Shown here in pieces: positions 11,450 to 60,839 of a stretch of DNA of 64,000 bases. Source of the DNA: Nageia nagi (taxonomy: Eukaryota > Plantae > Pinophyta); NCBI GenBank assembly GCA_050084985.1, contig JBITNC010000001.1, positions 63,550,001-63,614,000 of the forward strand, written 5' to 3'. The number at the start of each line of letters is the position of its first letter. The stretch's first letter is position 1. The position numbers and the translations under genes were made by a program. The notes beneath the pieces were generated by a model. The model was not told the DNA's origin. It saw only the letters and a program-made list of their open reading frames with translations, and ran no database searches.

Positions 11450-12870
11450 TCTGGGTGCATAGTTTTCAATGAGTGCTTGAGCACTCCTTGAAAAACATGC
11501 GACTGGGGCTTGGGTCACTTAGTCAAATTTCAGAACATAATTCTTCACCACACACCTGGGTGCATGGATCTAGATGAGTTAAAAAGCATGTTTCAAAAAG
11601 CATGCACCTTGAGCTCGGGGCTTTATTGAAATGCCTTAGCCAAAAACAAGCTATTTGGATGAACAACACCCCTCTAGACTCCTTATTTTTCCCCGGCACA
11701 CTGTTTTAGGTGAGTGCAAAAGCATGAGCTAGAAATGGTGCGACTGGGGAAGGATGAAAAATTTGAGATGAAGTGGTAAAATTGACTAAGGGGTGGCGTG
11801 ATATTTATAACTATCTATGTTGCCACATGTCACTTTCGGGTGGTCAATCTATGGGTCAAATGGCAGAGCCAAAACAAGGGTGCATGGTTTTAAAGGGGTG
11901 TAAAAGCATGTGTCAAGAAGCATGCGACTAGGGTCTTAGATACTTAGCCAAATTTCAAGTCAACATTGAAGCTCAATTCCTGGTCGCATCGTTTTGAAAG
12001 GGTGCAAAAGCATGCATCTTAATCCTTGTGCCTAAGGTCTGACACACCTCCCGAGACCAAAAATTCCAAAAATAATTAAAAAAATGTAGGTTTGACACAG
12101 GTCGCACGTTTCAGAGGACATGCTCTTTCTCCCTTGGCTCCACGCAATGTTCCATACAATTTTGCAAACAGAATGACTGATGCTGACTTTCCTCTTATAG
12201 CCATCCGGGTAGGATAGTTGTCATCACATGATAGGTGCAAGAGGGGGTCGAATGCATGCGTTTCCAATTGGCAACAATCTGAACCCAACACTTAGCCAAT
12301 TTTCACCTCATGAATTTGGTCGCATGGTTTGAGTTGGGTGCAAAAGCACTCACTTGAAAGATGCGACTAGCCTTGATTGCTTCAAAAATGGCTAATTCCT
12401 CTTGTCTCCTGGTCGCATGGATTTGGATGGGTGCAAAGCACTCACTTGAAAGCATGTGACAGGACCTATAGGTTCTGAAAACGGCTAAGTATAAATCACT
12501 TCCTCCTTCTTCGCATGAATTTGGACGGGTGCAAAAGCACTCACTTGAAAACAAGCAACAGGCTTTTCTAGAAAAAAATGCTAAGTATGAGAGGCTCCAA
12601 CCTGGTTGCACCGTTTTGGGTGGGTACAAAAGCATTCACTCGAAAACATGCAACTGACTGAAAACACTCTATTTTTGCCTTGAATTTCGACCAAAATGAC
12701 TGTAAACATGAAATGCAATGAGGGAGAGATGAAGTTTCGCAGCATGAGGGACCCTAAAGGTGCAATTTTAAGAGTGAAAATGCATGTGATGATTGTGAAA
12801 ATGCAGCATGAGGCTGGTTGACCGTTTGGGAGGTGTGCAAAAGCACATCCCTCAAAACATGCGACTGAGG
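11450..12870. repeat. Array of ~50-bp imperfect palindromes (A-type)
   Basis: Repeated gtcgcatg...gggtgc-aaaa-gcactc...catgcgac, e.g. ~12319-12367, ~12412-12460, ~11983-12016, ~11879-11928. Confidence 0.8.
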
Positions 12871-14895: not shown

Positions 14896-16185
14896 TTGGT
14901 TATGTTGGCGTTTTACCCATTCAGCATTTGAATGGGTGTCTCACCAAATGAAAAGCGATAGGATCACCTTTGTTTGACTTTGGGGAAATATTTAACTATT
15001 CTTCTTTCCCCATCATTTGGCATGTGGCACCAGAATCAAAGCACCACACATCATCTTTTTGGTTGACATGGATTTGAAATCCACAATTAAGAATATTTTC
15101 TATTGATATGTGCATGCCTTTTAACAGGAAAAGAACATGGTTGAAGCACATGGTGAAAATACTTTACATGGCTACTATGCCAACTAGATACAATAAATTC
15201 TCAACAAATTTAGAGACCAACAATAATTTTAACAAACTTTCTAACTATGACCTTAATGACTATAGCATGTGGGTTTAAACTACCATGGCTACCTAACTGT
15301 CCACTTTTGACTTGGATGTTGAGTTTTTAAGTAATTTCTGATCTGATACTTACCCTTCTGAGTCCTAGATCCCTATCCTTGGTCATGCTCAAATTCGAGA
15401 GCAACAATGAAGATCAATCGCCATCCTTATATTCTGTGACACTGTTATTATGCATCATTGGTTGTTCTATCTTCCATTTGTTGTACTTTATGTGCCTCTT
15501 TTTTTATAATGATAGTATTAGGTGGTGGTTTTCCCTTAATTTCATTCTATTCAGCATTCTTTTTGGTCAAAAGAGCTCAAACCACCTTTCTTCTTGGACT
15601 TTTTTCCCCTATGTTTTGGAGCATGGCGCCTCCAAACTTATCTTCTTCATATACCTTCAACATTTGCTGCATGTGAAAAAATATGCCTCCCATTAGATTG
15701 AACTTGAGCTCTTACATGCAATTTTTAAGCTAGTAATCAGGCTCTCATATTGGTGGGGAAACTTTTCAATGTAGCAAACACTAATGACTTTTCCATGTTC
15801 ACCAACTAATTTTTAATCCCCTTCTACATATGCTCAAGCATACTATCACCCAACTTCAAACTATACAACTTTTTCTTCGTCATCAAGTTATGAGGATCAT
15901 TCTTTTTCTTGTATAAACTATGTAATTACATTCCAAGCTTCTTCAGGACTATTATTGTTACTGTTGTGTCTCCATAACATGCCCCAAAATCTCCAATTTT
16001 GGGGACCCAAATTTTTGCTAAGTCAAGATCATTGAAACTAGAGTCTCATTAATCCTGTCATGGTCACTGGAATCCCATCAAAGAATCCAGTGTTTCTCAC
16101 CTTTCTTAGTCGTAGTCATGTGAATCCAAATTCGAAGAAGATAAAATTTGACTATGTTTGGAATTAGGAGGGTCTAGGGGTCAGG

Positions 16186-17212
16186 CGTAGGTTTCAAAAA
16201 GACCAAATCATGACTTTTCAAAACATGAGCCCAAGTTTAGGAGGTGAGTCAAGATATAAGTCACAAGCACAAGTGCCCGAAAAAGTGTCTAAGTGTTAGA
16301 GTTAAGTCTTTTACCTATACGTGCATTCCAAATAATGTAAGATGAAGATGGTGCACGTTTCAAAAAACAAAACCTTGACTTTTGAAAACGTGCACTCAGG
16401 AGAGGGGCATCTAGGAAGTAGGTGCAAGCTTTCAAAATACAAGAATATGACTTTCCAAAATATGTGCCTAGCTTGAGAAACCTTCCAAGAGAGTTTGAGG
16501 AGCAAATTTAGCTAAGGCATGAATCCAGGGCGTCTGAAAGTGGTTCAAAATTGTACAAGAATACTAGTGCATGTTTCAAAAGACAAAAATATGACTTCTT
16601 AAAACATGCGCCTAGCCAAGAGAGGCTCCTGGTTCAAGCACACACTTTCAAAAGACAAATACATGACTTCCTAAAACTTGCACTAGGTTCAAGATGGTTT
16701 CCAGAGGAGTTGGGGAGGGGGACAAAATGATTAAGGCATGGCTTTGAGACTTTTAGAGGTGACATGAAAATACTCAAAAGGGTTAGCACATGAGTTAAAA
16801 AGACAAAATTGTGTCTTTCTAAAACATGCGCTCAACTTAGAAGCCCCTCAAATCCAAGCGCATTTTTTCAAAAGACAAAAATATCACTTTCTAAAACTTG
16901 TGCTAAGTTCAAGGTGGTTTCTAAAGGGGTACAGGATGCGAAAATGGCTAAGTGTTGATCCTTGAGACTTCCAAATAAACTCAAAATCACCCAAGGAGGA
17001 GATTGCATGTCTTGAAAAGACACAATTATGTCTTTTTGAAACATGTGCCCAAGGAAGAATGACATTTAGTTCAAGTGCATGATTTCAAAAGACACCATCA
17101 TGACATTTTGAAACTTGCGCTCAAGGAGAAAAGTTGTCCAAGTGAGACGCAAGGATGAAAAATACAAAAGTATGTCTTTTAAAAATGTGCGCTAAAGGTA
17201 GAGAGATGTCAA
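16186..17212. repeat. Array of about 10-11 ~46-bp palindromes with alternating short and long spacers
   Basis: Units such as gtgcacgtttcaaaaaacaaaaccttgacttttgaaaacgtgcac (16351-16395) and gtgcatgtttcaaaagacaaaaatatgacttcttaaaacatgcgc (16567-16611). Confidence 0.85.
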
Positions 17213-17451
17213 GACCAGGCACATGAATTTTAACATGCACATGAATTTTAATAGCTCAAGTTGCACATATCCCTAGGTCAACCACCACATTTAATGCACC
17301 ATTTTCTAAACCAATCTTGACCGAGTGGGATGAAATGGAGCCCTAAGTTTGCTATAAAAGGGGAATAGAAACTTCATTTTGCAAACATAAAATCTGTCTC
17401 CTCCCATAGCGTGTGCACATTCCTAGAACAAGAGCGAATAAAACCTAGGGC

Positions 17452-20400
17452 ATGAGTTCAGAGCTAGAAAAAACATTGGTGCAAGGTGTGGGAGATTGTC
17501 CATTTGTTCGAATTCGTGAGCACTCTAAGATGGACGCCTTTGAGAGTAAGTATTCTAGGGAGCTAAGGAGGTTGATGAGGGATAGCATAGTCAAGATGGA
17601 TGAAAGAACAAAAACCCTCTGGTCAGGAGCACATTTCTCCAAGTGCGGTCTCATTGACATTGAAGACACAAATTGGCAATGTGTTGATCCAATGAAGGTA
17701 TTCAAGAGGGTCTTCGAGTTGGATAAGCAGGAGTTGAGGTGTGATCTTCTGTTCTACTCAAGGTTGGTTAGTACCATTGCCATACCTTTCACCGTCCCAT
17801 ACCTAGAGTTGTCCGTGGAAGTAATCAAGAACTTATATCAAAGAGGGAAGGGTGCTTCATGATGCCATAGGACAAGTGATCACGGACTTCAACACAGAAG
17901 GGAATAAGGAAGGTTTTTCGATGGACCGAGGAAGGTGAACATGAGTACATTGAAGAAGAGTCTCTCCTCCTCTACAAGAAGACCTCTAGGTCAAGCAACT
18001 AAATCAAAGAGTGCATGTTTTCTGACTATCAAGAGCCAAGTGAAAATACTTCATCCCTATGGTTGCTAAGATCATCACCATGTTGTCTTGAGTGTTAGGC
18101 AAGGAAGATGACTCCAAGTTTCGGAAGAAGTTCTTCGGGTTCATCATCATGATAAGTAAAGGGAAGAGTATCAAGTGGAGTAAGGTGATCAATGACACAA
18201 TGGCCAGCCAATTGTCCTCCATGGATTCCACAAAAAGATTTTACATGAATTCGTATTTGGTATACTTGCTTTTGAAACTTCTCCCATTGTGAAGTCTAAG
18301 GTGTTAGATAAATCAAAGCCATCTTCAAGCAAGGATCAAATCCAATTAGGGCAATATGCATCCATGTGCCCAAAGCAAACGATAGCTAAGATCGCAAGGC
18401 GAGTTCAGTTGGAGGTGAATGACTTGAGAGAGGTAGGGGATGACTACCCTCTGGACGAGCTAGAAGATGTTGCCATGGGAAGAAAAGTTGGACCCAGTTT
18501 GGATTGAATGAGGCAGTCATTTCTCCCTAATTAGCTTGTAGAGAAGCCATGAAAAAATCAAAGATCAGAAGCCCCACCTTCGTGTTTAGTGCTTGAAGGG
18601 TCAAATCTATCCTCCAGTTCGAAATATGGACCAGATGCATCTATGGAAGGAGAGGTCAGTACACATGCTACCAACACAGTCAATGCTGATGAAGGAGCAA
18701 ATGTCGGGCACACCGAGAAGAGAGATAGGTTAGTTACGATACTCAACGAGGAGCAAAGACCTCCATCATTGAAATGACAAAACTGTCTTCATCAACATGG
18801 AGAAGAATCCAACTCCACGGTTGGTAGTCAAGATGTCACATCATGAGATTTTCTCCATTCATGAACCATCTACACATGCTTTGGAGGGAGGACTTGGCGT
18901 GGAGGGTCCAAGTGAGATTAGTGAACAAGCTGAGAAGAGGAGGCTAGACGTCCCACCAACACAAGGGGCTTCACCAAGGCAAGAAGTAGTCGTTGCTCAA
19001 GGGCAATATATAGAAGCACATCACTTGGGGGCAGATAAAGATTGAGATTTTGATGTAGGCGAATGCCTTGATGTCTTGCGAATGAAATTGGATGATGAAT
19101 TGAAGATGGTGATGAGAAGCAAAAGCAACATGCTAGCGTGACATATGTCAAGATGAAAGATAGATCCGTCCACATCAACACAATGGTCGCAAAGAAGAAT
19201 GACTTCCAAGGTGCATAAGATTTGAGGATACACACACAGGTAATAGAGACAACTCCTATTGGGATAGCAGGAAGGAAGTTCACCGTCATTACTAATACTA
19301 AGGCCAATGCAAAAGATAGATTCAAGAAGGAGAAAGAGATTGTGACGTCCGCTTTGTACTTTTAGTGGGTACAGTCTGGTCACCTTGTACTATATCTATT
19401 TGATGTAGTTGTAGTTGCATTGTTGTAACTTAGGATAGGAGTTTAATGGGTCATTTGGACCCCATTGTGAGCCCCAATTGGGACATCTCTCTTCTAAGTG
19501 GTAGATTAGGCATGTGTTGCATTGGAGATCCCGGATTGTGGGAATCCCAAGGTATGTTTATGCATTTGTGAGTTGGATGTCTACCAACATGCCAACACCA
19601 TATTGGGGAGGGTATCGCCACGTTGGCTCTTGAGGACTTCTGGACCCCCATGTTGGCACTTTAAGTGCTAAGCATACCATGTTGGCATATTATATGATTA
19701 TGACCCCCACGTTGGCACTTTAAGTGATTGGGCCTCTTAAATACCCAATATTGGATTAGATGGGTCTGGGATGACTTCTAGGTGAGTTTGGGACACAGGC
19801 AATGTATAAATAGACATTGGAGCTACAACATTGTGCAACTATTATTGATCATTACACTTATTACAGACCTTTGGGCACAAGTCTTAGCGGCGCTAAGCAT
19901 TTCATTCCTAGGTGGAGCATCTAGAGGGTAGTTAGGCAGTGGTATCCTGATTATCTACGACATAGGTGGAGCACCTTGTCCATTCGATGGCATTTCGAGG
20001 GTTTACTTCTACCTTCAATGGTTATACAAATTTCAAGGAGGACTCCTTTAGTGGAGGGGATTCGGGATCTGAGGGAGTGAATCTATCTCATGGTCCAACA
20101 ACTGTTCAGTGTTGAGGATTTCAAAGCATTGTGCCCTAGTTGGCTCCCTTGAGACCAACAACGACATTGGTATTATTGTTTATCATTCGTATAGCCAGAG
20201 GGCACTTGGATCTCATTATTGTGTTGTGTGTTTCATACTTGTGCATGTGTTGGATCTTGTTGTTTGTATGTACCTATATTCATCATTCGGTGGCACATTA
20301 ATGTAATAGGGTTTGGATTATGCATGTATGAGCTAGATGTTGGGAATTTGACATTGTATCCATTGATTTATGCTTGTATATGCTTGACATTGGCATTCTG

Positions 20401-21283
20401 CGTATCTGAATGTTGAATATGAATGCCCTAACCCTAATGTTGCATGCATGAGGGTTTGATTGTGTATTGTGGATGCCCTAGACCTAGCGTCAGGGCTTGA
20501 TGATCCTGTATTGCTAGTTAAAAGGGAAAATTGATTTTTGGATCATCACATAGATCAAGAGTTTGAAGAAAGAGTTAGCTGCCCAAAGAAAGTTAACCAA
20601 AGAAATTGAGATGGCAAATATGCAACTTGAAGACATCAAGAAGCAGATTACCTTGAACGAGGGGTTGGTGGTCACGAAAGAGGACTTGAGCAAGGAAGTT
20701 GTAGATGCAGTGAAATGATTGATATCCAATCTTTGGAGGTTAGCAAGGGCAAGGGAACGTATGGATGACATCATAGCCAAGGTGACTCGTATGTTTGAAG
20801 AGTTGGACCAAAACTATCCAAACATAGTGGACCCTCGTAGAAAATTGGCTATAGACCTGGGGATTTGCTGTTTTGTAGAGAATATTGGTATCATCATGGT
20901 TGGTTGCGCAACACGAAGATTCAATGTCAAGAGTGGACCAAGGCCATCGCATTCGCATACACGAGGGACAATGCTCACTTGCAGGTGATGAGGTTTAGTA
21001 CGATATCAAATTCCTTTATGATGATGATGTGATTAGAGAGCTTGAGGTGGCTTCTACTGAGACATAGCATATGGTGAAGGACCTGATTTGCACTAATGAT
21101 GTCAATGTCTTCCAGACAGGGAGTCACATTTGCCATGTGATGGAGATACATGCATGGAGGTCCCAGATGGAGTGCATTGTTGAGGAAATTGCAAGGTTCA
21201 TTGATGAGAAAATCCAGATTTATGAGGAGTTCAACTTGGGAGAGGAGTTGGTTGATGAATTCATGGACAACCACTTTGAGTAG
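17452..21283 (+). pseudogene. Long uncharacterised ORF of unit B (deleted and interrupted)
   Basis: DTNWQCVDP, LGKEDDSKFRKKFFGFI, KRFYMNSYLVYLLL, KELAAQRKLTKEIE, DVNVFQTGSH; homologous to C/D/E. Confidence 0.8.
19341..20550 (+). repeat. Solo LTR inserted in the unit B ORF
   Basis: TGTGA...TCACA ends; TSD gagat/tagat; host reading frame KEKEI|KSLKKEL rejoins after removal; TATA-like tataaata at ~19805. Confidence 0.82.
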
Positions 21284-34058: not shown

Positions 34059-37000
34059 GTTGGAGAGGCCTAGTTCGCTTTGATTGAGCTCTGACTCTTC
34101 CTAGACTCCCTAGTTCACCTAAGATCGACTTTTACACTTCCTAGATTTAGCCGTTTTTAAAGATTTTGGAAATCCTATCTTGATGTGACTAACCCTAGAC
34201 AAAGGGAGAGGCTTGAACTATAAGGAGTTGTCCATGAATTTGGGTCTTTGAGACACAGCTTGGGTGGGATTGATGATGACAAAACGAAGTATATACATTG
34301 ATGCATTGAGGGTCCCCAAAATCGCAGAATTTTGGGGAATTTTGTGTTTTACATTTGAATTTCGATGCATTTCCACCTTTTCTCCACAATTTAGACGCCA
34401 AAATTCATCTCTATGGATTTCCCATAGGCTCGAAAAACTGCGCCTAGGATTTGAGTGCCTTAGATTTCGTCAAAATTGTCCTAATTATGATAGAATTCAC
34501 CTTATCTCTCCAATAACATTCTTAGACTTGAATTCCGACACCATTTGCATTTATCTTTGAAAAACATGCACCATATTTCTCTCATTTGGGTCTTCAATAC
34601 TTTAGAAAAAGTGCCTTAGGCTAAGGGTACTAAAACTTGCATTTTCGGTCCATTTTCCAGACTCAATATGTGCATTTCCGGCCACTCCCGATGTTTCCGA
34701 GCTCAAGCTTGACCAAAACGCCTCTTTTCGGTACCATCGATATCAAACTTTGCATTTTTGATGATTTCCGAGATTAAATGGTGCTAAAACGACCACTTCC
34801 GCCTTTCCGAGCTCAGACTTGTCATTTTTCCATCATTTTTGGAACTTCCGGGCTCAAAGTATTCATTTTCGCCCATTTTTGGCATTTCTGGGCCTTAAGT
34901 GTGAAAAAGATCATTTCTGGCATTTTTGGCCATGTTGAGCTCAACTTTGCATTTTTGACCATTTTCAAGCTTTTCAGGTTCAAATGGTGCAAAAACGCAC
35001 ATCTTTACTTTACTGACCACTTCCGAGCTCAAAATTGATCAAAACTCGCCTTTTCGTGATAATGACCATTTTTGACCTTTCTGGGCTGATACTTGACACC
35101 TTAGCTACATCCACTGCTCCCGGACTTAAACTTGAGAAAAACGCTCATTTTCGTCACACTTGGCACTTGTGAGCTTAAAACTCTGAAAAACAACCCTATT
35201 TTTACTGACTGCACTCTAGACTAAAAATCTGTGCTCTGATACTCTATCTCAGATTCTGGCTCCTTGGCTCCAAAATTGGTGACTGGATACTTTGATACTC
35301 TTCAAGGTCTTTGTTGCAAGATCTCCTTGAATCGCTCCCTGATATCACGTTTGCACTCTTCAGAATGAACTATCCGTCGCCAAAAGCCAATCTCAAGGCA
35401 ATGCACCTGATTGCCTTTGCAAAAATAGGGTCCCCAAAATCTTCTATTTTGGGGTGTGTTGTGTGGGCACAACAAGGCCTAGTGAGCTTCCATGCTGACA
35501 ACATGGTTGAGCATGTCTTTCCTAGCTTCTACTCTTCTTCTTCTCCTTCCTCTTCTTCTCTCTCTCTTTGTAATTCAGCGTGGCCCCTCCTTGACCACCC
35601 CATCCTACATTGTATCTCGTTTGGTTGGGTGCACATGATTTAGGGCTTTGACCTCCACTTATACTTTTGTTTGGCTGGTATAGGCTTTATGTTGGGCTAC
35701 TTTGAGCCTTTTTTGGTAATTTTAGCATTCATGTACTCTCCAGACCAATTGACTGCTTTTAGTCACCTGTGGACATTAATATATTTTCTTTCTTTCTCAG
35801 TCCTGTTGTCTCTCATAGCAAGACAAAGAATAAACAAGAAGAAAAAAGCAACATATGCAAGAACTAGAAAAAGCACAGAAAACTTGGTGGAGGAGAATTA
35901 ATCTCTCACCACCCAATTTTTGATAGCTTTTCAATTTTCCCACATATACAATACAGTGGACTGGTACATTTTTAGATTAAAAGAGGGAGATGCATAGTGC
36001 ACAAAATGTCCAACATGCACTACACACTACACAAGTACTCTCATGCGAAACCCGTAACTTTTAATTGAAACAATATGTTATATCCCTACATACATTAAGC
36101 ATTAGGACTCAAGGAGGCAGTATTGATAAGTACTAGTATACACTATACATTACATTTCATTGATTTCAACAATCTATAGTTTATTCATTGGTCATACTAG
36201 CTTGGTTTTAGATCGATGTTTCATTTCTGATTGTAAGACCAGGTGGAGTAAATTTTTATATTTACATTTTTATTGATTTGCATCAGTCAGAATAAGAAGC
36301 AACACATCAATTCCAAATTATTATCTTTTTTGTTTCAGCAAAATGATCTAAGTATTTGAAACTAAAGTACATTTCTATTAGCCTGCCATACCATGGCTGC
36401 AATAAAAAACCAAAAAATTAACATAAGCCACGTAGGCCAAAAGACTATTCTTCCCCCCCTCCCTTATTGATGGGGACTATAGATGCCTAAACATAGACTG
36501 AAGCCTGCACATGGACAAGGATGCTATAGGTGCTTCACAAATATTCAGCCACATGGCGGATAAATATGAACTAGGACACCCATTCATCTTCCCTTGGCTG
36601 GCTGAAGTGCTTGAGCCACGTTTGACGTCACTCCCCATTCATTGCCAACAGCATTGTTATGTTAAACTTTGCAGTGAACTGCTCAATCTCCTTAGTTTGC
36701 TTGTGAATGTGTTTTGCAGTATCAAGGAGGCTGGAACTGCATGTTGGCTTATGTTTTAATTTGCAGGTAGTATCACCAAGTTTGCAATCGGGATCTTGTC
36801 CTTTATTGCCGTTTCTAGGTGCTTGCCCAGCTCCTTGAACCGCTTCTAATATTGTTCATATTTATTCCCCAGTTTCACGAAGTTTGAGTAGCCTGTTTTG
36901 CTTCCACCTCTTGCACTTTCAAATCCTCAAGCTCTACCAAATTCAACTTCTGTTGCATTCTATCTAGATCTTCCTCATGCTTGGATCCCATTTCTGCTTG

Positions 37001-40000: not shown

Positions 40001-40013
40001 CCATTGAAGGTCT

Positions 40014-42821: not shown

Positions 42822-43928
42822 TTGGAGTTCAGCTAGGACCTGTTGGGTGGTTTTTCTTTCCTACCCTAAAGTAGTGAGAAAAGCTCCAACACTTCAAGTG
42901 AAAGGATGTTACTCCTTCCCGCTATGGGGAGTGGTCACCCCAAAGGTTAGCTCCATGTCTTGGCAGAGATAACACAGGGACTGGCTGAGATGTTTAAAGT
43001 TGCCACCAACATGAATATCATATATGGATTTAAGGGACTTTGAGTTTTGCACTTTGTTGTTTCAGGAAATTGCTAAGGGAAATAATGGGTGCGAAAGCTG
43101 AAAAAAAAAGTTTAAAATAAAATAAATTGGTAGAAAGACCGTGGGCAGTAAAATGCAACTACAGGCATGCGGATTCACGGGCTTGGGATAATATCCTCAA
43201 AAGTCAACTTGCTAGGTCTCGACGTAGGTTTCAAGCATCCTCAATCCATCCCACTAGCCAACTACACAAATTGTCTAGTGGAAGGAGCGTGAAGTTGTGG
43301 CAAGGATGGAATAGGACGGGATGGAGGTAACATTCAATGATCCAGGTGAAGTTCCTATTGTGAGCGACATCAACAAGACATTTTTAGGTATCCAAGCCTA
43401 AAATTGCAAATGACGAAATACCACAAACAAGATGCTAATCAACCACTTCATAAGATTTCCAAGCATTCTCTTATCCACTCCATACAATTTACAAGATGCA
43501 CCAAGTGATTAAAATCAACACAAAGTAGTGATAGAACAAACTAGATAGCATTGTCATTCATTCATTCGAATTCGGCATTACAACATGAGAGCATATAAAC
43601 ATAATTACATTCACATACACCACATTTAACAAATTTAGAGAATTTTTGTGTTGCAAGCAAAAGTTCCTTCAAATTGTTAAAATGTCAATTCCCCTTTACA
43701 ACTTAATCAAAATGGGGTATAAATAGTTTTTGAGCAACTAACAGTGTGTCCCTAACCCTAATTGCGAATTACGAGAAAAACAATATAGTCCAATAAAAAG
43801 TTGCCACAGGGCATCACAAGATCCCTTCTATACTTGTGGGAGCAAATCCTCATCCGTCACAAGTTTGGGAATAAAATAATATTTTATAAAGTATTTTTCT
43901 GAAAATAAAATAAAACTGAAAATAATAA

Positions 43929-46900
43929 CTAAGACGATGGTGGGCCCAAGGCCACAACTCACTCCTTGAATTCCTCATCCAGGAACTTCACTATAAGCTC
44001 CAACTCGCGCAACATCTTTGGAAATTTGGGCTTGTTCTCAACAACACAACATCCAACCTCATCAATCAGTCTCTGCATCTCGCTCTTCCATGCATGGGCT
44101 CTCATCATGTGTTGGAGGTGACTTCCAGACTGGTAGGTGTTCACATCCTTAGTCATGATCAAGCTTTGAAGAAGATGCTTGACCTTTGTCACTACCAAGT
44201 TCGCCTCCCTGATGGTGGTGTCGTCTTCTAGAAACTTAACCTGGAAGTCCATCTGTTTAATGCTTGTGTTAGCCTTGTCATTGATCATATTCACCTCTTT
44301 CTTGACCTCTTGGAAGTGGGTGACTACCTGATTGATCACACCCAAGTAGAACCAATAGTCTTCACAGAATTTGACATCTTCGGGCCTTTGACTCTGTTTC
44401 ATCTCAAATCTCACTATCCTTGGCTTCCGAGACTCCAAGATCTTGAGGAGGCTAACCCTTTCAGTCACAATGTCTTTTAGTTTTTGCTCCTCGAATGAGA
44501 CTCTTTGTAAGGCACCAATGAATTGCTCTAGCATTGTCAAAACCTCGATCACTTCTTGTTTTACCGCAATCATGCCCTCCTTGAGAGGCTTTATCCTTTG
44601 GAGCTTGTCTTGCGGTACTTTGGCAGACTCAATCTCTCGAGTCAATCTCCTCTGGGCGGCCAACTCCTTCATGAGGTTTTTTATTTCTTTCTCCTCTAGT
44701 AGCCAGTACTTGGCGATTGCCTTTGTGTTGGAAATGATTGTGTGCTTCCTTCCAACCATGCTAATGGGACCTATGTTAATGATCTGGTTTATTTGCTTGA
44801 TGTCTCCAAGGCGTTAAGGGTTGTTCTTGTCAGCAATTATGGTCTTGATGTGGACTGCACTGTCATTCATATGCACATAAGACTGACTCTTACCCGGACG
44901 AGTGGAGCTCTCTCCAAATCAGTCATTAACTTCTCTTTCTCCAAACTCCTCTCCGACGTCTATGTTAAAAACATTGAGGCACTTATCCATGTCAACACCC
45001 CACTCATGATTTGGTGATGGCTGGTGGGTCTCAATAATTGGTTCTTCAGTGTGGGTTACTTTTCTCTTAGTCCTCTTTAAAGGTCTATCTTCTTCCTCTA
45101 TTGCCCCTAACAATTGAGACCAAGATGTTCTCTTCAACTGCATCCCCCTCGATATTGACTTAGAAGCTAGCCTTTACCTTTCCTTTGGCACGTTGAAGGC
45201 TTCGATGAAGCAGGCTTATGGACTACCTTCAAAATCTCCATGGATGGAGCATCCAGGATATCATCGTGGGGACCCGTACTTGCTTCTTGTTCATTTTTTG
45301 GCTCTCTTTCACATTCATTCTCCAACTCTTCATGCTCATTCTCTTGCTCTCCTTCTGGATTGTCATCAAGTTCATACAAGGGACTAGAGGATGTAGATCC
45401 GGATGGTAGAACGACTGGGGATGGGTGTGAAGTCAATCCTCTAGGTGGTCTCTGTGGTGGTGATGAATATTTCTTTATGTTCCTGACATATCTAACCATC
45501 TTGTCAGTGGCCACATGGTCCAACTCTCTTATGTCGTGCTCATCTATGGTGTTTCTAACTTGCTGCACAATCTGCTCAAATGGATTCTTGCCATGCATGG
45601 AAGCATACTAGCCAACAGGCTCCTAAATCGTTGGGGTAATTTGGGTGACTCTGGACGTGGATTCTTGTGGTCTTCTCCCTCTTGATTGTGACCTCTTGTT
45701 AATGATAGCCTCCACGGTATGTTGTTGCTTTTGAGCATCCTCGTGCATTTTGGTACTGATTTTCTTCATCTCTACCTTGTTGCTTAAGTTCCTGAAAGGC
45801 TCCTCTTCTCTAAGTGGCTTATGTTCATAAGCTCTCTTTCTCTCCTTCATGTAGAAGCCGTGGATTCTATGCTCAAGATCATAGTGGCTTGTTGCAGGCA
45901 TTTTCTTGAAGTTGAATTTCCAAACTCCTCTCTCATGGAATCAACATCCGCCCAAGCTCTAAATTGGTATTCCCCAACTATGATCAGTAGATTCGAGGTG
46001 GTTGATTTCTTCTACCAGTCATGCTCGTGCAAGTGGGTCAACTGCCTTATCATCTCCATCAAAAGCAATTTGTTGCTCACATACATGGGTAGTTGATACG
46101 GTTCTACGGTTGATCCATAAATTCGAATGTAGGAATAGTGTTGGTGATGGATGAAGAAGTTCTCATGCTTCCTCAATGCATCTTGGGCTGAATTTGAGAT
46201 CCTAGCAATCGTGATTTCTCCTTTAAGCTCTTTATAGATCTCATACTCGCATCCATCATTCTTCATGATGAAACTATCCGATCTTCTTTCAACTTTCCAC
46301 TTAGGCTAGCACTTCTAGACAACATATGTTCTCTTTTGAATCTAGGCTGCTTCCCCTAGATTCGTAGGCTTGTACTTGCCATGAAGCAACAAGTACACCA
46401 AGTAAGAGTTGAGGTAGAACTTTCGTGTGGTCCCCATAGATGACAACTGGTCTGCAAAGGTGTTGCTCAACACCTTGCTCCACTTGATCTTCTTTCCCCT
46501 TGCAATCTCCACGATGAAGCCAAAGAACTGCTTCTTGAATTTGGATGCATTTTCTTTACCCAAGACTCTTGACAACATCATAATCATTAACTCCATGGAG
46601 GGGTAGAAGTTAGAGCGAGCGGCTTTGATGAGAGCATTCCCCTTTAGGCGATGATGTTCATCCAGCATCCAATTCCTGATGGCCACAACAGCCCTATTTG
46701 TGTCTTGATAGCACACAAGTGACTCCGCTTTAATATATTCAAAGTTTCCTTCCAAAGCCCATTGGAATGTTGTTTTGATAGCTTCGGAATTGAAGTCCAT
46801 GATGACATTCCCTTTGATGTCTTGAAGCACCCTTTCTCCCTTTTGCCAATGCTGGTTGACTTCTAGGCACAATTCTGGAAAAGTGGCTATGAATGGGACG

Positions 46901-47163
46901 AAGGCACAATTAGAGATATCGGGGAAGAACACAATGTTTTGTTTCAGCTCATTGATTTGCATACCCCATATCTTATCCCTCCTCTACATGGGGTCTACCT
47001 TTTTCCAGTCTGTATCTCTAATTGTGGCAAACCCATTCTTAGAGAACTTAGCCCCTTGGTGTAGGGTTTCTTTGCTCTCACGAATGGTAATGATGCAATC
47101 ATGCCTTAATGTTTCTAGGTCTCTTGGAAAGTCCTTGGCCGAATTGCTCTTTGAGGTAGTCAT
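43929..47163 (-). pseudogene. Long uncharacterised ORF of unit D (~1,075 codons, few stops/frameshifts)
   Basis: ORF-track pieces 46984-47172, 46342-46962, 46012-46266, 45623-45901, 45167-45598, 44919-45143 and 43959-44759 are consecutive parts of one protein. Confidence 0.87.
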
Positions 47164-47550
47164 GATGCTCAAGTGGGTGACGAAGGCCTCCAGGGGTGAT
47201 GCATTGGTTCCCCAAGCATGCTATGACTCCCACGTTGCCTTGCTTGGCCTCCCAACTCCTTGCGCAAGCCTTGCCAAGTGGTGTGGCAGATTTGGAACTC
47301 AACTTTTGTCTTCTACTTTGAAATTTGGCACAAAAGATGAAGAGGAGATGGATTTGAATTTGAGAAAAATGAGCCTTTGGGCTTATATTTATAGGCAATT
47401 TTAGGTCTCCAAGAAACCCTAGTCGGTCATGCATGAGGAGGAATTGATCTTGGTTGTCCAAATGGCCAACCTTGAGATGCATGCATGCTCAAAGTTCCAT
47501 GCTTGGCCATCGGAAATTGGATGTGGGGGGTTTAGGGCTCTTCCAAGGTT

Positions 47551-48235
47551 GGCGCATGCCCAGAAAAGACAAGGTTTTGTCTTTCTGGAGCATGTGCTCA
47601 ACTTGAGGAGGCATGCTCTTTGCTTGTCAGTTCTCCTTGCTCCCCACTTGTCCGTCTCGACCCTTCATGCTCATGATGAGACCTGAACTTATCTGATTTT
47701 GCCCTTCCTAGTGTTCTAGCTTGTCAAATTTTCACAACACACTCAACCAAAACACCCTCCAGGATGAGCGCATGTTTCATAAAGACAAGATTTTGTCTTT
47801 CTGAGGCATGCACTAGGTTGCAGATGCCCATATTGATTGAGTTTTGGCTTTCTGCTCTTACGAATTAGCCAAATTTTCACATTCTTCTCATCCTGATGTC
47901 TCCTTGGATGGTCATGCTTCACTTTATCGAACTTCAAACTTGTCTAGACGGCCTTCCAGTTTGAGTGCATGCCCCCAAAAGGCAAGATTTTGTCTTTTTG
48001 AGGCATGCACCAAGCTTAGAATACCTCTTGCTTGCCTTCTCCAACTTCAATTCCGATTCGGGCGTCCCCTAGCCCGAGCACGTCCCAGAAAGACAAGATT
48101 TTGTCTTTTTGAGGCATGCGTTGGGCTTGGAAGTGGCCCAGTTTGCTTTTCCAAACTTAGATTCCGACTTGGATGACTCCTTGGCCCGAGCACACGTCCC
48201 ATAAAGACAAGATTTTATCTTTTTGAGGCATGCAT
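47551..48235. repeat. Palindrome array of unit D
   Basis: Five clear units, e.g. gcatgcccagaaaagacaaggttttgtctttctggagcatgt (47554-47595). Confidence 0.82.
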
Positions 48236-49048
48236 TGGACCTACAAGTGGCCCAGACTCACTTGACTCAATTTCGGCTCGATGTGGGTTTGCCTATTTCA
48301 TCTAGACTCGACTTGAATTTCCATACGTAGCCATTTTTTGGAGGATTTTAGCTTTTATTCTATCATGACTAAGACCGGTCGATTTAGCACACTTAGGCGA
48401 TGGAATGATAAATGCGATTCCCAATCAAAATGAAGTCAGGAATACACAAGACAAAACATGGTGTTGCATGGACATGAGTTGCAGTGGGTCCCCAAAGTCA
48501 CGAGATTTTGGGGCGAGTTGTGTAGGGCACAACAGAACCCTCACCCAACACACCACACTTCACTTGGTCTCTCACACCAAGCTACACACCAAGATGTAAC
48601 AATCCAACCAACCCAACTGCCTAAGCAAGCTAACAACTAAATACATAACATCCCAAAGAGAACACAACAGCCGGAATGTGAAGAAAATGAACAAAGTATG
48701 AAAAGACTCAAAATTGGGTGATGTATAATGTCCACAAAATATGACTGCAGAAATGCGGTCACGTTTGGTGAAACGTGGTCACGTTTGGTACTGATGAAAC
48801 ACAGTGGCTACTGCATTTGGTACTGATGAAACACGGTGGTGAATGTGTTTTTGGGCAATGAGTGTGAAAAATCAACTTTGAGGTTGGATCTTCAAGTCAA
48901 GTTCAAGTCTGATCAAGCCCAATTTCCAACAATTTCAATTTGGGATTATTACATGTTTAAAGGAAATTTGGTGTCACAAATCTACACCTGCATCTTCCAG
49001 TATTTGTAAGTTTGTGCCCTCTCTTTCCTCTCTTCTTTCTTCCTACTC

Positions 49049-53245: not shown

Positions 53246-54020
53246 ATTGGATTGTTTTTACAATGTTTGCTTGTACCATTGTCCTGTAGCTGTGGATGCA
53301 AACGATCAACAAAGTATTTGAGTTAGATAAAAAAACACTATAACTAAATTTTTTTTTTATACTTATGACTCTTATTTGTTGACTGTTATAATGTTATTTG
53401 ACTGTTGACTGTTAAGAAAATAGTATAGACTGAAAATTTTTGATGACAGGCAATTAAGTGCAGTGAAGTACCTCTATGTAATTCTCTTGTGTATTTAATA
53501 TTTCTGCAAAGAGATTAGTTCATTGTTATCCAAAATTGCTAACAGAGATGATAATCAGATTGTTGTGTAGATGGTCAAGGAGAAGAATAAAATAAGGTTT
53601 GTCCACCATCCAGAAGTTGTGTGGTGTTGTGATTAAAATACAACATGCCCCAAAATCCTGCGATTTTGGTGACCCACAAACACACTATTGTATATACTTC
53701 GTTTTATCGTCATCTCGGTCTACCCAAGTTGCATCGCGAGACCCAGATTCATGGATTACTCATATTTCATAGCCTCTCCCTTGGTTAGAGTTAGTCATGA
53801 TAAAATAGAAATTGCAAAATCTTTAAAATGGCTTGAGTCTGGAAAGGGTAAAAGTCGAACCTAGGTGAATTAGGAAGTCTAAGTCAAGCCGGAAGTTGGT
53901 CAAGTCAAATTGGGCATTCCCAAGGGCTGGCACATGCTTTTTGAACCATGCAATTGGGCTAAGGGGTCGTCCAGGCAAGAGGGAAGGTTCAAAGATGAAG
54001 TCTGGGCACTTACAAGCCCA

Positions 54021-54811
54021 GCGCATGCCTCCGGGAGACAAAACTTTGACTTTCCTAGGCATGCGCCAGATACAAGAAGCATTTTGGACTAGAAGAAGGT
54101 GAAAAATCCTAAGGCAAAGACACTAGGAGGTTGGTGCATGCTTCAAAAGGACAAAATCATGTCTTTTTGAACCATGCGATTTGGCTAGGAGGACAAGTTG
54201 AGCAAGCTTGAATTTTGAAAAAAGAACCTAAGTTACCCAGGAGGGCTCCCAGTCGGAGCGGAAGTGAAAATTTGGACAAGTCATGGGCCCGGGGAACTCA
54301 AAATCAACTCAAGCATACCTAGGGGGGTTGGCGCATGATCTCAAAAGACAAATTCTTGACTTTTTGAGGCATGCGCCAAGCCTAGGAAGCTTCCAGGATT
54401 CGAGAAACATGAAAATTTGGCTAAAGCATCAACACTTGAAGACCAAATTCGGGAAAATAGGCCAACTGGAGGCTAGCGCATGTTTCAAAAAGACAAAATC
54501 TTGTCTTTTTGAACCATGCGACCAAGCTAGAGGGACAGGCAAGGCTGGCGCATGCCTCAAAAGGTCACAATCTTGAATTTTGAAAGCATGTGCCAAGCCC
54601 ACAGGTTGCCCAGATTGAAACGAAGCATCAAAATTGAAAAATTTGGCCGGTTGGAAGACCAAAAATCAAGAAAAATCAGGTTAATGGGTGAGTTGGAAGA
54701 TCAAGGCAAGCAAGCACATGACCAGGAGACCCAACGTTGGGAGCATACTCCCTCCTAGGGTTGGCGCATGGTTTAAAAAGTCACTTTTTTGCCTTTTTTT
54801 TTGTATGCGCC
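54021..54811. repeat. Palindrome array of unit E
   Basis: Units at ~54021, 54134, 54330, 54476, 54548 and 54764. GCATGTTTCAAAAAGACAA-aatc-TTGTCTTTTTGAACCATGC has 19-bp arms with one mismatch. Confidence 0.85.
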
Positions 54812-54966
54812 AAGCCTAGATGACCTTCTAGACCCTAACGTCTGGGCACAAGAGGCTTTGCATGAGCTTTCGAACCAGCACATATCTAAAGGTCGGCCAG
54901 ATGAAGGGCTATGATGAGGTTTGATAGAAACCCTAGCCGACTAGGGCAAGGTGGGAGACGAATTGA

Positions 54967-54976
54967 CTATAAATAC
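54967..54976 (+). promoter_or_regulatory. TATA box upstream of the unit E ORF
   Basis: CTATAAATAC ~220 bp before ATG 55194; equivalent boxes in C (32933-32942, -), D (47385-47394, -) and B (17352-17360, +). Confidence 0.6.
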
Positions 54977-55193
54977 AAGCTTTGGGACCTCATTTTCCCA
55001 AATTCAAAACTTGCTCTTCTACCCTTGCACCAAAATAGCAGGAAATTGCAGATTTTTGTGTCCAAACATCTTAATTTATGCATCCTAGGGCTTGCGCAAG
55101 CATTTAGGAGGCTAGCTACCATCACGTGGAGGTTATTTTCACTTGGAAACACATGTAGTATCCTTGGAGAGCCACGTTGCAATTGAAAACACC

Positions 55194-57707
55194 ATGACTC
55201 CCTCTAAGCGCAATTCGGCTCTTGACTTTGCTAGGGACATCGAGCGGTTGAAACAAGATTGCATCATCTCCATTCATGAGAGACAACAAGCCCTTCCCCA
55301 AGGGGCAAGATTCTCGAGTAACGATTTTGCAACCATCAGAGATACAGATTGGCAAAACGTTGACCCCTTGCAGATGAGGGAGAGCATTCGTGGGCTTCCT
55401 TCCACTGACCTAAAGCAGGACATTGTCTTCTTCATCGGGCTCTCCACTTGCGCATTCATCCCGTTCACAGTCCCATTCCCTGAGTTGTGCATGGAAATCG
55501 GTCACCACTAGCAGAAGGGAGAGAGGATCCTTCAAGAAATCAAAGGAGACATCATTATGGACTTTCACTCCGAAGCCTTTAACGCAACATTTTAACGGAC
55601 TTCCAAGGGTGACTATGAATATAGTGAGCCTAGGTCACTCGCATGCTACCAAGAGACTCCCAGGACATCCATCGCTATTAAGAGTTTGATTTTGGAAGAA
55701 CATCACGGGTTGAAGGGAAATGCACTCATCAATGCTTCTCGCTCTAACTTCTACCCAGCAGTTGAGTTAATAATTCTCCTGTTATCCAGAGTTCTTGGGA
55801 AGGAAGACGCTTCAAAATTTAGGAAGGAGTTCTTTAGGTTCATTCTTGAGATTGCTAGAGGGAGAAGGATTAGATAGAGCAAGGTGTTGAGCGATTCGAT
55901 AGCTGATCAATTGTCATCCATTGATACAACCCATAAATTCTACCTCAATTCATACCTGGTATACATGTTGCTCCACGGCAGGTACAGGACTACAGCGCAG
56001 GGTGAGACGACTTGGATAGAAAGAGGAAGTTACTCCATTTGGAAGTGCTATCCCAAATGGAAGTTAGAGAGAAGGTGGGACAATTTCACAATGAAAAACG
56101 ATATGGATGGGATTATGAGATATATAAAAAGCTTAAGGGAGAGATCATAGTTGCACGGATCTCTAATTCCGCCCAAGATGCTTTGAAGAAGCATGGTGAC
56201 TTCTTCCTCCATCACCAACATTTATCTTATATTCGTATACATGGATCAGCTGTACAACCCTATCAATTGCCAAGGTTCGTGAATATTAGAGTATGAACAG
56301 GAGAGATTGGAGTATCAGAGGATGAACAGGAGCAGAATATGATTCAGGATGAGGAGATCCCTAATGCGCAACGATAGGATGTGTCTATGGAGATTTTAGA
56401 GGAGATCCGTAGGCAAACAACTTCAGGGCCATCTACAGAGAGAAGTAGAGAGCTAGTATCAGAGACAGTATAGAGGAGGGCTCAATTGAAGAGGAATCCA
56501 TATTCACGAGCCACGAGACCTTCAAGTGAACAACATGATGAATAGGAAGAGGAGAGACCTTCAAAGAGAACAAAGAGGAACACTGTTACCAATCAAGAGG
56601 CCATGGTGAACACTTATCAGCCATCACCCATAAATGAATGGGGTGTCAACATGGAGGAGTGCCTTGATGTGTTCAATATGAATGTCAGAGAAGAATTTGG
56701 AGCAGGAGAAAAGGATGACCAAGTAGGGGAAAGCTCCACTCGTCTAGGAAAATCCTAGACATATGTCTATTTGGCTAATAATGCAATACACATTAAGACT
56801 ATTATAGTTGGCAAGGAGAACCCATAGCACCCTGAAGACCTTAGGCAGATTAACCAGATCATTAACACAGGTTCTATCGGTTTGGTTGGTCGGAAACATG
56901 CAATCATCTTCAATGCTGAGGCCATCACCAAAGAGGGTATGATGAAAGATAAGGAGATTAAGGGCCTCAAGAAGGAGTTAGCTGCACAAAAGAAGTTGAC
57001 AAAAGAATTGGAGTTGGCTAAGGTACCTACCGAAGAACTTCGGAAGATCAAGCCACTTAAGGAAGGTATGATTGCGGTAAAACAAAAGCACATAAATGAG
57101 GTCATATTAGTAGTTCAACGATTTATTGGAGCACTAGAGAGGGTAGCATTCGAGGAGCAGAAGCTCAAAGATATCATTGTGGAGAGAACTAGTTTTCTCA
57201 GAGTCTTGGATTCTAGGCGGCATATGATCATGCAGTTTGAGATGACACAGAACTAGAAGACGTGAAGTTCTGCGAAGAATATTGGTTCTATTTGGGTGTG
57301 GTCAATTAGATAGCCACTCGATTCCAAGATGTGCAAAAGGATGTGCAGAAGCTCAATGACAAAGCAAACACTTGTCTTGAGGAAATGGAGTTCTAGGTAA
57401 AGTTCCTTGATGATGATGCGGGCATCTGAGACAAAGACCTGGTGGTGGCAGAAGTGAGGCACTTCCTTCACAGTTTGATTATGATTGAAGATATCAACAC
57501 GTTCCAATTGGCAGTCACTTGGAGCATTTGCTCAAAGCTCATGCATGGGAGAAGGATATGTTGAGGATCGTGGACAAGGTGGAGCGCTACATGGTCGAGA
57601 ACAAGCCCAGGTTATCAGAGATGTTGCATGGATTGGAGCTTACAGCCAAATTCCTAGACGACAACTATGAGGGGTGTGTAGAGGTGTTGGGCCCACCAAA
57701 CGCCTAG
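55194..57707 (+). pseudogene. Long uncharacterised ORF of unit E (internal deletion at ~56290)
   Basis: MTPSKRNSALDFARD...KFYLNSYLVYMLLHG...PYQLPRFV | acidic linker...KELAAQKKLTKELE...EVLGPPNA*. Confidence 0.85.
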
Positions 57708-57829
57708 TCACAATATCTATTATATTTTATTTCATAGTTATGTTGTAAACTTTAATTTATTCTTTAATAATTCCCAAGTTTGTGATGGATGAGGATTTGC
57801 TCCCACAAACTTGGAAGATATCTTGTAAC

Positions 57830-57930
57830 GCCATGTGGCGTATTTTGATTGGACCATATTTTATTTTCTCGTAAGTTGCAATTAGGGTTAGGGTGACACT
57901 TAGGGTTGCTCTAAAACTATATATAGCCCA
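57830..57930 (+). promoter_or_regulatory. Second (LTR-type) promoter downstream of the ORF
   Basis: G-box-like gccatgtggc, reverse CCAAT (attgg), telo-box-like tagggtt repeats and CTATATATAG at 57917-57926; equivalent TATA in C (29259), D (43718) and A (7563). Confidence 0.55.
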
Positions 57931-60839
57931 TTTCGGGTCATTTGTAGAGGATTAGACATTTTTGTGCAAAATTGGACAACTTACACTATTTTTCCAAACT
58001 TGCAAGTTTCCCTTTTTTTTTTTCACAATGGTGATATAAATCTCAAGTAATTGAAGTGAGCATGTTCTTATTTGAGACTATGGATGTCATTGTATGTTAT
58101 TTTCCCATGCTATCTTAAGTGTTTGGATCATTTTGTAAATCTTCAATAAGGTGGACAAAAGAATGCGTGTAGATCTTTTGAAACATTTTAAGTGGTGTGC
58201 ATGGTTGTAACATTCTATAGTTTGCACATTGGATTAGTGTCTTCCAAGAGAACTTGCATATGTCGTTTAACTTAGGAACTTCATTCCATGTTTGAGTCTT
58301 ACCCCATCCTATCTTACCTTTCCACCGCTTCAACTTCAAGCTCCCCTTGTTGAGGTATTCGTGTTGTTGCCTCACAAGTCGGATCGGGAATGCGTGGAAC
58401 CTAGATCAAACCCGTGCAAGTCCAGTCTCTGAAATTCACACTAGTCGGTGAGAACATTGCCTTAGAGCCCCATTCACATATCACCTCTCTTCACAAACCT
58501 TTTCTTTATTTTTCTATTTTTTGCACGGCTTTTGCAACAAACTCCTTTTATTTTCTATTTTCTTTGAGAAACAACCTCACTGGATTAGAGAGACCCTTTG
58601 AGTCCTTGAGTAATAAATCTATTTTGAGTTGGTAATAGCTTAGAACATCTCTACCAAACCACCTGAGTGAGCCCATGCACCCTTCACTTTCTAACCTTTG
58701 AGTTAAACAGTCCTCATAGCAGGTAGGGGTAACGCCCTACCACTCAGGTGTTGGAGTCTTTCCACAAAGCCCTGCGATACCACTTGTCAACCTGCAAGGA
58801 TAGCAAAGAAAAGGCCCCCAACATGTGGGATGGATGATAATAATTGAAGAGAGCATTTACCTATTTGTTTTTATGTTTCAGTTCCCCCATATAGGACACT
58901 GGACTATCTACAACATTACAGCATAAGTATACACAACACACTTCTAACTCCTGTGATGGTAGGAGCTTAGTTTCTGGGTAGACAGTTAGACTTTTTACTT
59001 CTAGTCTCTAATTTGAAAAATAGTTAATGAAAATAGTATATCAAAGACTGAATGGCAAGACAGTAACAGAAGCTAATAACAATTTTAGGATGAAGTTTAC
59101 AAAATATAATGAAAACATGAAGATTCATGGAAACCCAAGCATATTAGAGGTGGAAAATGTAAGTCTCAAGTTGATAAAGAATTAGAGAATGTTAACACAG
59201 CAATTCATTTAAGAAATGGTGAGCTAAAAAGAAGATATTTGAGGTGAAAAATGAAATAGAAGGCCATGGATTCTGCAGGACATAATCTGTATTTCATAGA
59301 GTCTAGACCAAGGAGACTTCAAAGACTTGAAGAAAGGACGTAGTCACTGTATTTCAAAATGAGTGTTTACACCATAACATACTGGCTTAGCTTAGGGTTG
59401 CAAAGCACGTAGTAAAGGTAAAACACAATCATTTCAAAATTCTGCTTCATGGGAAGGTGAAGCCATGTGGTTGTGCAACCACATGCAAATTTTGGAAGCA
59501 TTTCCAAGTGAGTTTAGGGAGAAATTGGAAGAAATTTGCATGCCTGGGGCTCCTGCTGTGGAACTGTGAAATAAATTCCTTTAAGATGAAATGAATTCGA
59601 CCCCTCTTGTCAAATCCAATCAACACACTGAACTCGCTCAGCAACAGCAGTTATTCCTCCTCTCTCAGCGCACTTACTCTCAGCAAATGTAGAGAAACAA
59701 AAAAGAAAAGTGTTTTTGAGTTAAATAATGCCCAATTTACTTTTACTGGGCCTAGCGAGTCCCGAAATCAGGACTCGCAAGTCTCAACCGAGACTTGATC
59801 GAGTCTGGAAAAGACTGAGTCCCAGGTCTGAGTAACTCGGTAAGGCTGACTCGGATTCCCCAAGTTACTTGGACTGGGGCTGTTTCTCATAACTATGCCT
59901 AGAGCAACTACCAACAGTGAATGTTTAAGCAATCATTTTTATCCTGAACGGCAGGTGTGCCTGTAGTTTGGGCTAGCATTTATAAGTCATAGAGTTTTTT
60001 GTATCAGTGTGGGTCATGATCCTGCTGTTTAAAAACATTATTTAGTACAGAGGCTTTATGTCTCTGTACTTTCCATGATGGTAGAGTTCAGTAAATAAAT
60101 TATAGGAATTTGCATTGTTGGACATTGTTTGCATGTATTGCTTGTGTATTTTTGTTGCATTGTAAAGAACTGATAAAACTTGTTTTCTTGCTTCACAAAA
60201 GCAAAATTGAGTCTGTGACTTGTGATTGCAATTTATCTCTTCCTTGTTTATAGAGTGGTCCTACGAACACCATTAATGACTGGTAACAGTGGAGTTTAGA
60301 TTGCATGGATGCATGTTTTGGTATCTATTTTATTATTCAGGGTGGGTAATAATAGAGTTTAGATATACTGGTTCTTGTTTTGAAATTACTTTTGGACTGA
60401 AAAATTCCAGCAGACAAACAGCATTAGTTTCTTTTGTTTCTCTTTGTGCATTCGATTTACACAAAATTCGTTCTTTTAAGTTGGAGGACAAATTTCATTA
60501 GTAGGTTCTCATTTCAATCAGTAGTTTCTGTATGCAGTAGCTAATTTCTTGAGGGGATGATTGATGAAGATGATAGACATGTAAGTCGAGCTTAAGGAAA
60601 CTGGAAAATACTATCTTTGCAATATCTGAAAGGGTACTTCATATTCACTTGATTTTTATTTCATGATGGATAAATATCGATCCTTTAACTTGACAATCTT
60701 TATTCTCTTTGTGAGCGCTATATGTTGAGGTAATCATCATATTTTGACTTTTGTATGTTGTGAAATCGATTGCCTAAATACTGTAGTGAACATAATCATT
60801 GACTATAGTCGTAAATGATAAATACTCAAAACTTTTCAG

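Follow-up and report, generated by a model that had tools for sequence, protein, structure and literature searches.

A 64,000-nucleotide stretch of Nageia nagi DNA (contig JBITNC010000001.1, positions 63,550,001 to 63,614,000; the window) holds a decayed gene for a large transposon accessory protein, copy A, for whose front half structure prediction gives a fold like that of VANC21, an accessory protein of Arabidopsis VANDAL transposons. The gene lies in the window in five broken copies (A to E), its ancestors were under purifying selection, and it belongs to a family of at least 200 proteins. It is carried by a discrete unit of 5.2-5.7 kb that ends in TGTTG...CAACA and is flanked by a 5-bp target duplication, and arrays of near-palindromes built from two conserved half-sites stand upstream of the start codon. 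Our leading reading, held tentatively and at a little less than an even chance, is that the product is a sequence-specific DNA-binding accessory protein with a VANC or plant mobile domain (PMD) fold that acts on its own upstream palindromic array.

A decayed gene and its relatives

Copy A is a decayed frame of ~1,067 codons on the minus strand, read along three segments (47163-46012, 45940-45167 and 45173-43959), and the column of the family alignment that holds its start methionine has M in 93% of 29 rows. A first-pass annotation had placed a protein at 43929-47163; the frame is real, but the strand is minus and the interval runs 30 nt past the stop codon at 43959-43961. The motifs quoted in that annotation are all found in copy A, where we recovered IRDTDWKKVDPM, VPFIATFPELCLEV, KGNVIMDF, LSRVLGKENASKF, FYLNSYLVYLLLHG, YSYIRIYGSTVEPYQLP and KELAAQRRLTREIE, as is the Ser/Pro-rich and acidic linker it described. 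A basic cluster in this linker, kept as RP(L/S)KR(T/V)K in copies A, B and C, has the look of a nuclear localisation signal. The C-terminal 284 amino acids have a heptad contrast of 0.404, higher than any of 200 shuffles (maximum 0.379), and are likely to form a coiled coil; a homodimer prediction for this region returned no answer (score 0.00, the chain's own fold being uncertain) and speaks neither for nor against a dimer.

Searching the window by tblastn with seven pieces of copy A yielded four further gene copies (B, C, D and E; E down to 1e-109), a conservation far beyond chance that extends to the C-terminus. All four are broken: the aligned codons include 7 stops in each of B, C and D, and 10 in E. 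At the DNA level, blastn found no match between A and D at E <= 1e-4 and a single match of 190 nt between A and E, which agrees with the earlier remark that motifs persist between A and D despite barely alignable DNA.

Mismatches between the copies fall where selection on a protein would put them. At codon positions 1, 2 and 3, copy A differs from B at frequencies of 0.279, 0.168 and 0.543 (910 codons), from C at 0.260, 0.166 and 0.510, from D at 0.512, 0.398 and 0.684, and from E at 0.451, 0.350 and 0.643, so that the order is 3 > 1 > 2 in all four comparisons. In twelve further pairs, including metagenome relatives, the ratio of nonsynonymous to synonymous substitution rates (dN/dS, Nei-Gojobori) was 0.055-0.268 in the nine with unsaturated dS; in the other three dS was saturated, and the proportions of nonsynonymous and synonymous differences were 0.22-0.31 and ~0.8. 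Because each copy decayed neutrally after its insertion, constraint in the active lineages must have exceeded these figures. We conclude that purifying selection acted in the ancestors before the copies decayed, as the first-pass annotation had proposed for active parents; dN/dS, the check that it suggested, is far below 1.

Relatives outside the window were collected with a profile of the N-terminal ~400 amino acids of the five copies, broken codons being written as X, searched against 1.84 billion representatives. It matched 200 proteins at E <= 1e-3, 78 at E <= 1e-10 and 20 at E <= 1e-30. The majority are short fragments from run assemblies, but intact long relatives exist, such as P0105 (1,010 aa) and P0016 (488 aa). 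Of 30 clusters looked up, two carry organism names; in both the species is Taxus chinensis and the protein is annotated as hypothetical (one of them is KAH9327732.1, 686 aa). Among sequencing runs, none of RNA was listed as containing the sequence, and three runs share only 0.05 of its words. One relative of 465 aa, P0140, has ~75 residues of the accessory-protein domain fused to an Alg9-like mannosyltransferase (Glyco_transf_22, E 5e-43) and is probably a chimeric annotation that spans a transposon insertion.

The family could not be assigned by sequence, as the earlier annotation had also found. With hmmscan, no Pfam family rose above its cut-off for the seven pieces of copy A (E <= 1), eight long homologues (E <= 0.1), 111 alignment members (E <= 1) or 58 homologues (E <= 0.005), and in the run with 111 members none of the best 25 of 41 families appeared in more than three members. 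A sequence search of the PDB returned nothing relevant at E <= 10. DUF7405, weakly touched by three of the 111 members, was the sole recurrent weak family among those listed; its best match (P0010 residues 104-138, E 1.6e-4) scored 21.1 bits, below the cut-off of 27.1. From these sequence matches DUF7405 may be a distant sister family, and a full-text literature search returned no mention of it. A word-index protein search with a 213-aa piece of copy A found nothing among longer proteins, and one with the profile A4 gave only three matches.

Predicted fold and upstream palindromes

An AlphaFold model of the N-terminal 403 amino acids of copy A, built with 111 alignment rows, reached a pLDDT (predicted local distance difference test) of 76.9, with a core above 90, and a pTM (predicted template modelling score) of 0.73. 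Both N-terminal domain models that we examined are mostly helical. For two members only 21% identical to one another, the same chain, VANC21, was the unique top match among 48,161 chains and covered most of the domain. The front half is thus predicted to fold like the DNA-bound VANC21 fragment (PDB 9LNK). The earlier guess of a PMD-like protein fits this sole fold match, in that published work ties VANC to PMD; it did not find support in Pfam, where PMD was not among the matches listed. Arg/Lys positions are conserved in the domain, for which four of five members have an isoelectric point (pI) of 7.8-9.4.

Near-palindromes of ~46-60 bp, with outer arms GCATG...CATGC around a symmetric A/T-rich core, number 5-9 in each of copies A, B, C and E, where they occupy the stretch from the element's 5' end to the ATG. 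An nhmmer profile found eight sites in the metagenome relative L001, again in that stretch, one each in the truncated loci L002 and L003, and none in the window outside the arrays of A, B, C and E. Copy D has no units of this type, but diverged repeats of its own take the corresponding place. A 26-nt core pattern with up to three mismatches matched 12 times against 0 expected, always upstream of A, B or C. Motifs of the kind that the protein would putatively bind are therefore amplified in the non-coding DNA of its own element.

Seven of eight units fold as single strands far better than shuffles do, and over 35 aligned units 81.3% of cells are paired in register, a share that falls to 31-51% once one partner is shifted. 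The covariation measures do not exceed those of shuffles, 83 to 169 of 500 of which attain them, and a hairpin kept by compensatory change is not supported, since column conservation fully explains the symmetry. Conservation of columns without covariation means that the symmetry comes from two conserved half-sites, as expected for the binding site of a dimer.

Several published observations make this combination of fold and array suggestive. VANC proteins contain the domains DUF1985 and DUF287; they bind short motifs, and methylation is lost through their action. In PMC13547354, VANC is described as dicot-specific and structurally homologous to MAIN, a PMD protein, and a VANC21 homodimer joined by a coiled coil is predicted. 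A preprint on PMD proteins (bioRxiv 10.1101/2024.09.27.615353) relates the structure of PMD-C, the group of MAIN, MAIL1 and MAIL2, to VANC's DUF1985. It reports that PMD-C associates with particular promoter motifs, among them a palindrome, that it acts against silencing and that PMD-A is encoded by retrotransposons.

The likeness to VANC21 and VANC6 of the Mutator-like VANDAL elements accordingly has several parts. Each is a transposon-encoded accessory protein; VANC, too, has short cognate-type motifs amplified as arrays in the element's non-coding DNA and differing between subfamilies (PMC5735166); and VANC21 has a coiled-coil-like region beside its DNA-binding part (PMC13547354), as copy A appears to. 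The differences are also plain: there is no sequence similarity, the domain is N-terminal here, the repeats are ~46-bp palindromes whereas VANC motifs are 8-9 nt, and the host is conifer-like whereas VANC is given as dicot-specific. As for PMD (PF10536), the link rests on the reported similarity of PMD-C and VANC. A similar arrangement is described in PMC11963269 for a plant retroelement with an extra open reading frame (ORF), thought to bind DNA, beside family-specific tandem arrays; unlike that case, ours is a free-standing unit with its own target duplication and no surrounding gag-pol or long terminal repeat (LTR), and Transposase_28 had no match among the Pfam results listed.

By analogy with VANC and the PMD-C proteins, the protein would enter the nucleus by way of the linker's basic cluster and likely bind the palindromic repeats that shortly precede the ATG of its gene, probably as a dimer formed through the heptad-rich C-terminus. 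The bound array might then keep the chromatin of the unit open or its promoter active, an anti-silencing effect.

A number of results weigh against this reading. The PDB search did not link the VANC21 chain by sequence, and DUF1985 (PF09331), DUF287 and PMD were not among the hmmscan matches listed. A language-model look-up of P0105 placed DUF1985 no higher than rank 13 (score 0.85), and one of copy A's 213-aa piece gave unrelated bacterial families at scores of 0.78 or less. Foldseek against the PDB was empty for both models (best E 0.89 and 2.8), and the two models share most alignment rows and hence are not fully independent. One of the five domains is acidic (pI 6.3), and C-terminal homology was undetected in the distant member P0105 (best BLASTP E 1.2). 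The carrier is not a VANDAL or Mutator element: it has no Mutator transposase (VANA), its duplication is 5 bp rather than ~9 bp, and its ends are TGTTG...CAACA. Finally, enhancer repeats to which host factors bind would account for the upstream arrays just as well. Judged by its sequence and its carrier, the protein does not belong to VANC or PMD, and that it works like VANC is our hypothesis.

These points lend themselves to a different account, which we consider unlikely but the most serious of the competitors, in which the protein has some other accessory function (RNA binding, packaging, a scaffold), its resemblance to VANC21 reflects a generic helical arrangement, and the array is a host-bound promoter or enhancer repeat of an LTR. 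A generic arrangement sits poorly with a unique top match shared by such divergent members over most of the domain. No Retrotrans_gag, capsid or other gag family was among the Pfam matches listed, the CCHC knuckle C-x2-C-x4-H-x4-C is absent from seven copies and five homologues, and no zinc-knuckle or env family was found; a Foldseek search of the viral database BFVD gave nothing for the P0016 model. The other check suggested by the first-pass annotation, for a match to gag, env or another well-characterised transposon protein, found none. A mere enhancer repeat is also harder to square with array half-sites that are conserved across subfamilies whose remaining non-coding DNA is unalignable.

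The carrier unit and its surroundings

The evidence on complete elements comes from the window and five short metagenome loci. The DNA alignment of B and C spans ~6 kb, and similarity among B, C, A and the metagenome loci ends at the same points. The 5' end reads TGTTGTG, ~6 bases and CACAACA, and a conserved hairpin (CCCCAAAAT...ATTTTGGGG) comes next; this terminus is common to A, C, E, L001 and a truncated copy, F (35474). The 3' end consists of a GC-rich hairpin, a polypurine run and ...CCCAACA. The insertion of unit A is proven by a paralogous empty site at 39040-39130 that reads through the position of the unit and its duplication; it struck a small copia-like element in the 5' LTR.

The units hold no reverse transcriptase (RT), integrase, gag or other gene besides the accessory gene, and no RT or integrase adjoins them. 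When A, B and C were searched internally for terminal repeats, direct or inverted, the alignment scores stayed at shuffle level. The first-pass annotation had loosely likened the protein to an accessory ORF inside a Ty3/gypsy element, of the Athila ORF1 type; a unit of its own with a target duplication and no flanking LTRs, gag or pol lends this no support. The ends, together with the length of the duplication, led us to reject CACTA, Helitron, hAT and Mutator carriers. A solo LTR would have TG...CA ends and a 4-6-bp target duplication, as units A and C do. A polypurine tract before the 5' end was absent from the flanks of A, C, E, F and L001, and a TGG primer-binding site after the 3' end from those of A, B, C, L005 and L003 (twice). 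We therefore read the unit as either the solo LTR of an unseen giant LTR retrotransposon that has the gene in its LTR, or an LTR-less element moved by a retrotransposon-type integrase. The sag gene of mouse mammary tumour virus is an ORF carried inside a retroviral LTR, and the likeness would apply only if our unit were a solo LTR, hence an LTR with a protein-coding gene; in contrast to sag, the termini examined have no paired LTRs, primer-binding site or polypurine-tract context. A full-text literature search found no gene-bearing plant LTR with a gene of this size (3.2 kb).

As the sole gene in a unit with a target-site duplication, the protein might itself be the enzyme that moves the unit, a recombinase or transposase of a kind not yet described. 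We regard this as very improbable, because the predicted structures consist mainly of helices, their matches include neither an RNase-H-like nor another known nuclease fold, and the combination of TGTTG...CAACA ends and a 5-bp duplication marks the work of a retrotransposon-type integrase, which the unit does not encode. The carrier bears likewise on whether a host gene, such as a PMD-like chromatin factor, was captured as a passenger with no role for the element. Plant transposons commonly capture genes, which favors such an origin, and VANC itself is argued in one paper to derive from a captured MAIN-like gene (PMC13547354). A passenger is nonetheless quite improbable in our estimate: the five window copies and five metagenome loci share element context, upstream array and ends, selection across subfamilies ~40% identical in protein is how a gene that the element needs behaves, and no intron-bearing or element-free copy was seen, although no host genome was searched. 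We retain, at the strength given above, the reading of a DNA-binding protein that acts on its own array.

Two metagenome loci show irregular junctions. In L003, two identical unit 3' ends (2-107 and 916-1038) are inverted, each followed by the same 21 nt, which is an inverted duplication or an assembly artefact. In L002, a chromovirus integrase fragment (8-265, 70% to window 2898-3155) abuts the unit interior ~1 kb from the 5' end, a truncation or nested insertion.

Table 1. Positions in the window of the units, gene copies, protein regions and palindromic repeats.
Feature	Position	Strand	Details
Unit A	42841..48534	-	5,694 bp; TGTTGTG...CCCAACA; duplication GGTTC/GGTCC
Unit B	28369..~34353	-	5' tip degenerate
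Unit C	53625..58823	+	5,199 bp; perfect duplication TGTGG/TGTGG
Copy D, extent	7655..12659	-	Gene remnant and diverged repeats; unit ends not found
Copy E, extent	15962..21280	+	5' terminus with conserved hairpin at 15962
F, sixth 5' terminus, truncated	35411..35474	-	Same terminal motif and hairpin
Copy A, accessory gene	43959..47163	-	ATG 47163; stop 43959-43961; two frameshifts; at least 8 premature stops
Copy A, N-terminal globular domain	46207..47031	-	Residues 64-338 of read-through starting at 47220; aligned to VANC21 chain residues 297-633
Copy A, Ser/Pro-rich and acidic linker	44919..45607	-	Basic cluster PLKRTKRKV
Copy A, C-terminal region	43962..44813	-	284 aa, open; heptad periodicity
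Copy B, gene remnant	29582-32682	-	48-71% amino-acid identity per piece to A
Copy C, gene remnant	55149-57671	+	45-76% amino-acid identity per piece to A
Copy D, gene remnant	7721-10971	-	Distant subfamily; 19-40% amino-acid identity per piece to A
Copy E, gene remnant	17551-21280	+	Distant subfamily; 28-49% amino-acid identity per piece to A
Palindrome array, copy A	47546..48240		5 units upstream of ATG
Palindrome array, copy B	33093-34058		8 units (nhmmer)
Palindrome array, copy C	53937-54818		7-8 units (nhmmer)
Palindrome array, copy E	16179-17123		9 units (nhmmer)
Palindromic unit, clean example	54470-54528		
Copy D, own diverged repeats	11457-12047 and 12329-12659		GCATG...CATGC arms kept; core differs from A/B/C/E type

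The copia-like element that received unit A lies on the minus strand (38903-39387, 41876-42041 and 48535-48931; 39388-41875) and has LTRs 85-89% alike. Two insertions, unit A and a further one of ~780 bp (42042-42821), interrupt the 5' LTR. The element has a polypurine tract and TGTTGG at 39387, a gag-like N-terminus at 41231-41659 and an acidic 450-aa ORF (40017-41366) with only a weak trace of RVT_2, and is probably non-autonomous. A diverged tandem array at 27211-28355 (~65-67% between copies, period ~150-180 bp) directly abuts the 3' end of unit B; B inserted into the truncated copy F, and the array may be part of that copy. Just after the copy E gene, direct repeats at 21314-21396 and 23841-23923 are 95% identical and 2.5 kb apart, with a primer-binding-like site (TGGTATCAAAGC) near 21680; they look like a small insertion of the LTR or TRIM (terminal-repeat retrotransposon in miniature) type.

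Elsewhere in the window, a pol fragment of a Ty3/gypsy chromovirus (1-3942, plus strand) includes RT, RNase H, integrase and chromodomain, and a related chromodomain fragment lies at 37791-37919. Among named proteins, the integrase is closest to that of Cryptomeria japonica (67%), followed by Pinus taeda (60-63%), Taxus (53%) and angiosperms (51% or less), an order that makes a conifer the most likely host. A hAT-type DUF659 fragment is present at 52276-52560 (minus strand, Pfam E 1.6e-10). Two stretches close to it have been duplicated in tandem recently, one at 51925-52280 (185 bp x 1.9, 90%), the other at 49049-49334 (142 bp x 2, 97%).

Possible implications for transposon counter-silencing

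To our knowledge, sequence-specific anti-silencing by transposon proteins has so far been documented for VANC in eudicot VANDAL elements. Understanding of the PMD fold as a motif-reading module is only beginning, and the old transposons that fill conifer-type genomes, tens of gigabases in size, persist for reasons not yet explained. The window provides a concrete, testable pair of protein and motif. Its carrier is unusual in that a gene lies between LTR-type ends while LTRs, gag and pol are all absent. The broadest claim that could be drawn, that a conifer lineage has a complete self-targeting anti-silencing module (a VANC/PMD-fold protein with its own palindromic array) in a free-standing, LTR-like unit of 5-6 kb without gag or pol, goes further than the reading of the protein, and we think it rather unlikely. 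If it were true, VANC-type counter-silencing would be neither eudicot-specific nor tied to Mutator elements, and the strategy would reach as far back as the gymnosperms and take in another class of element. An LTR-like unit could then survive as an autonomous "chromatin-opening" gene, acting in trans on behalf of related elements.

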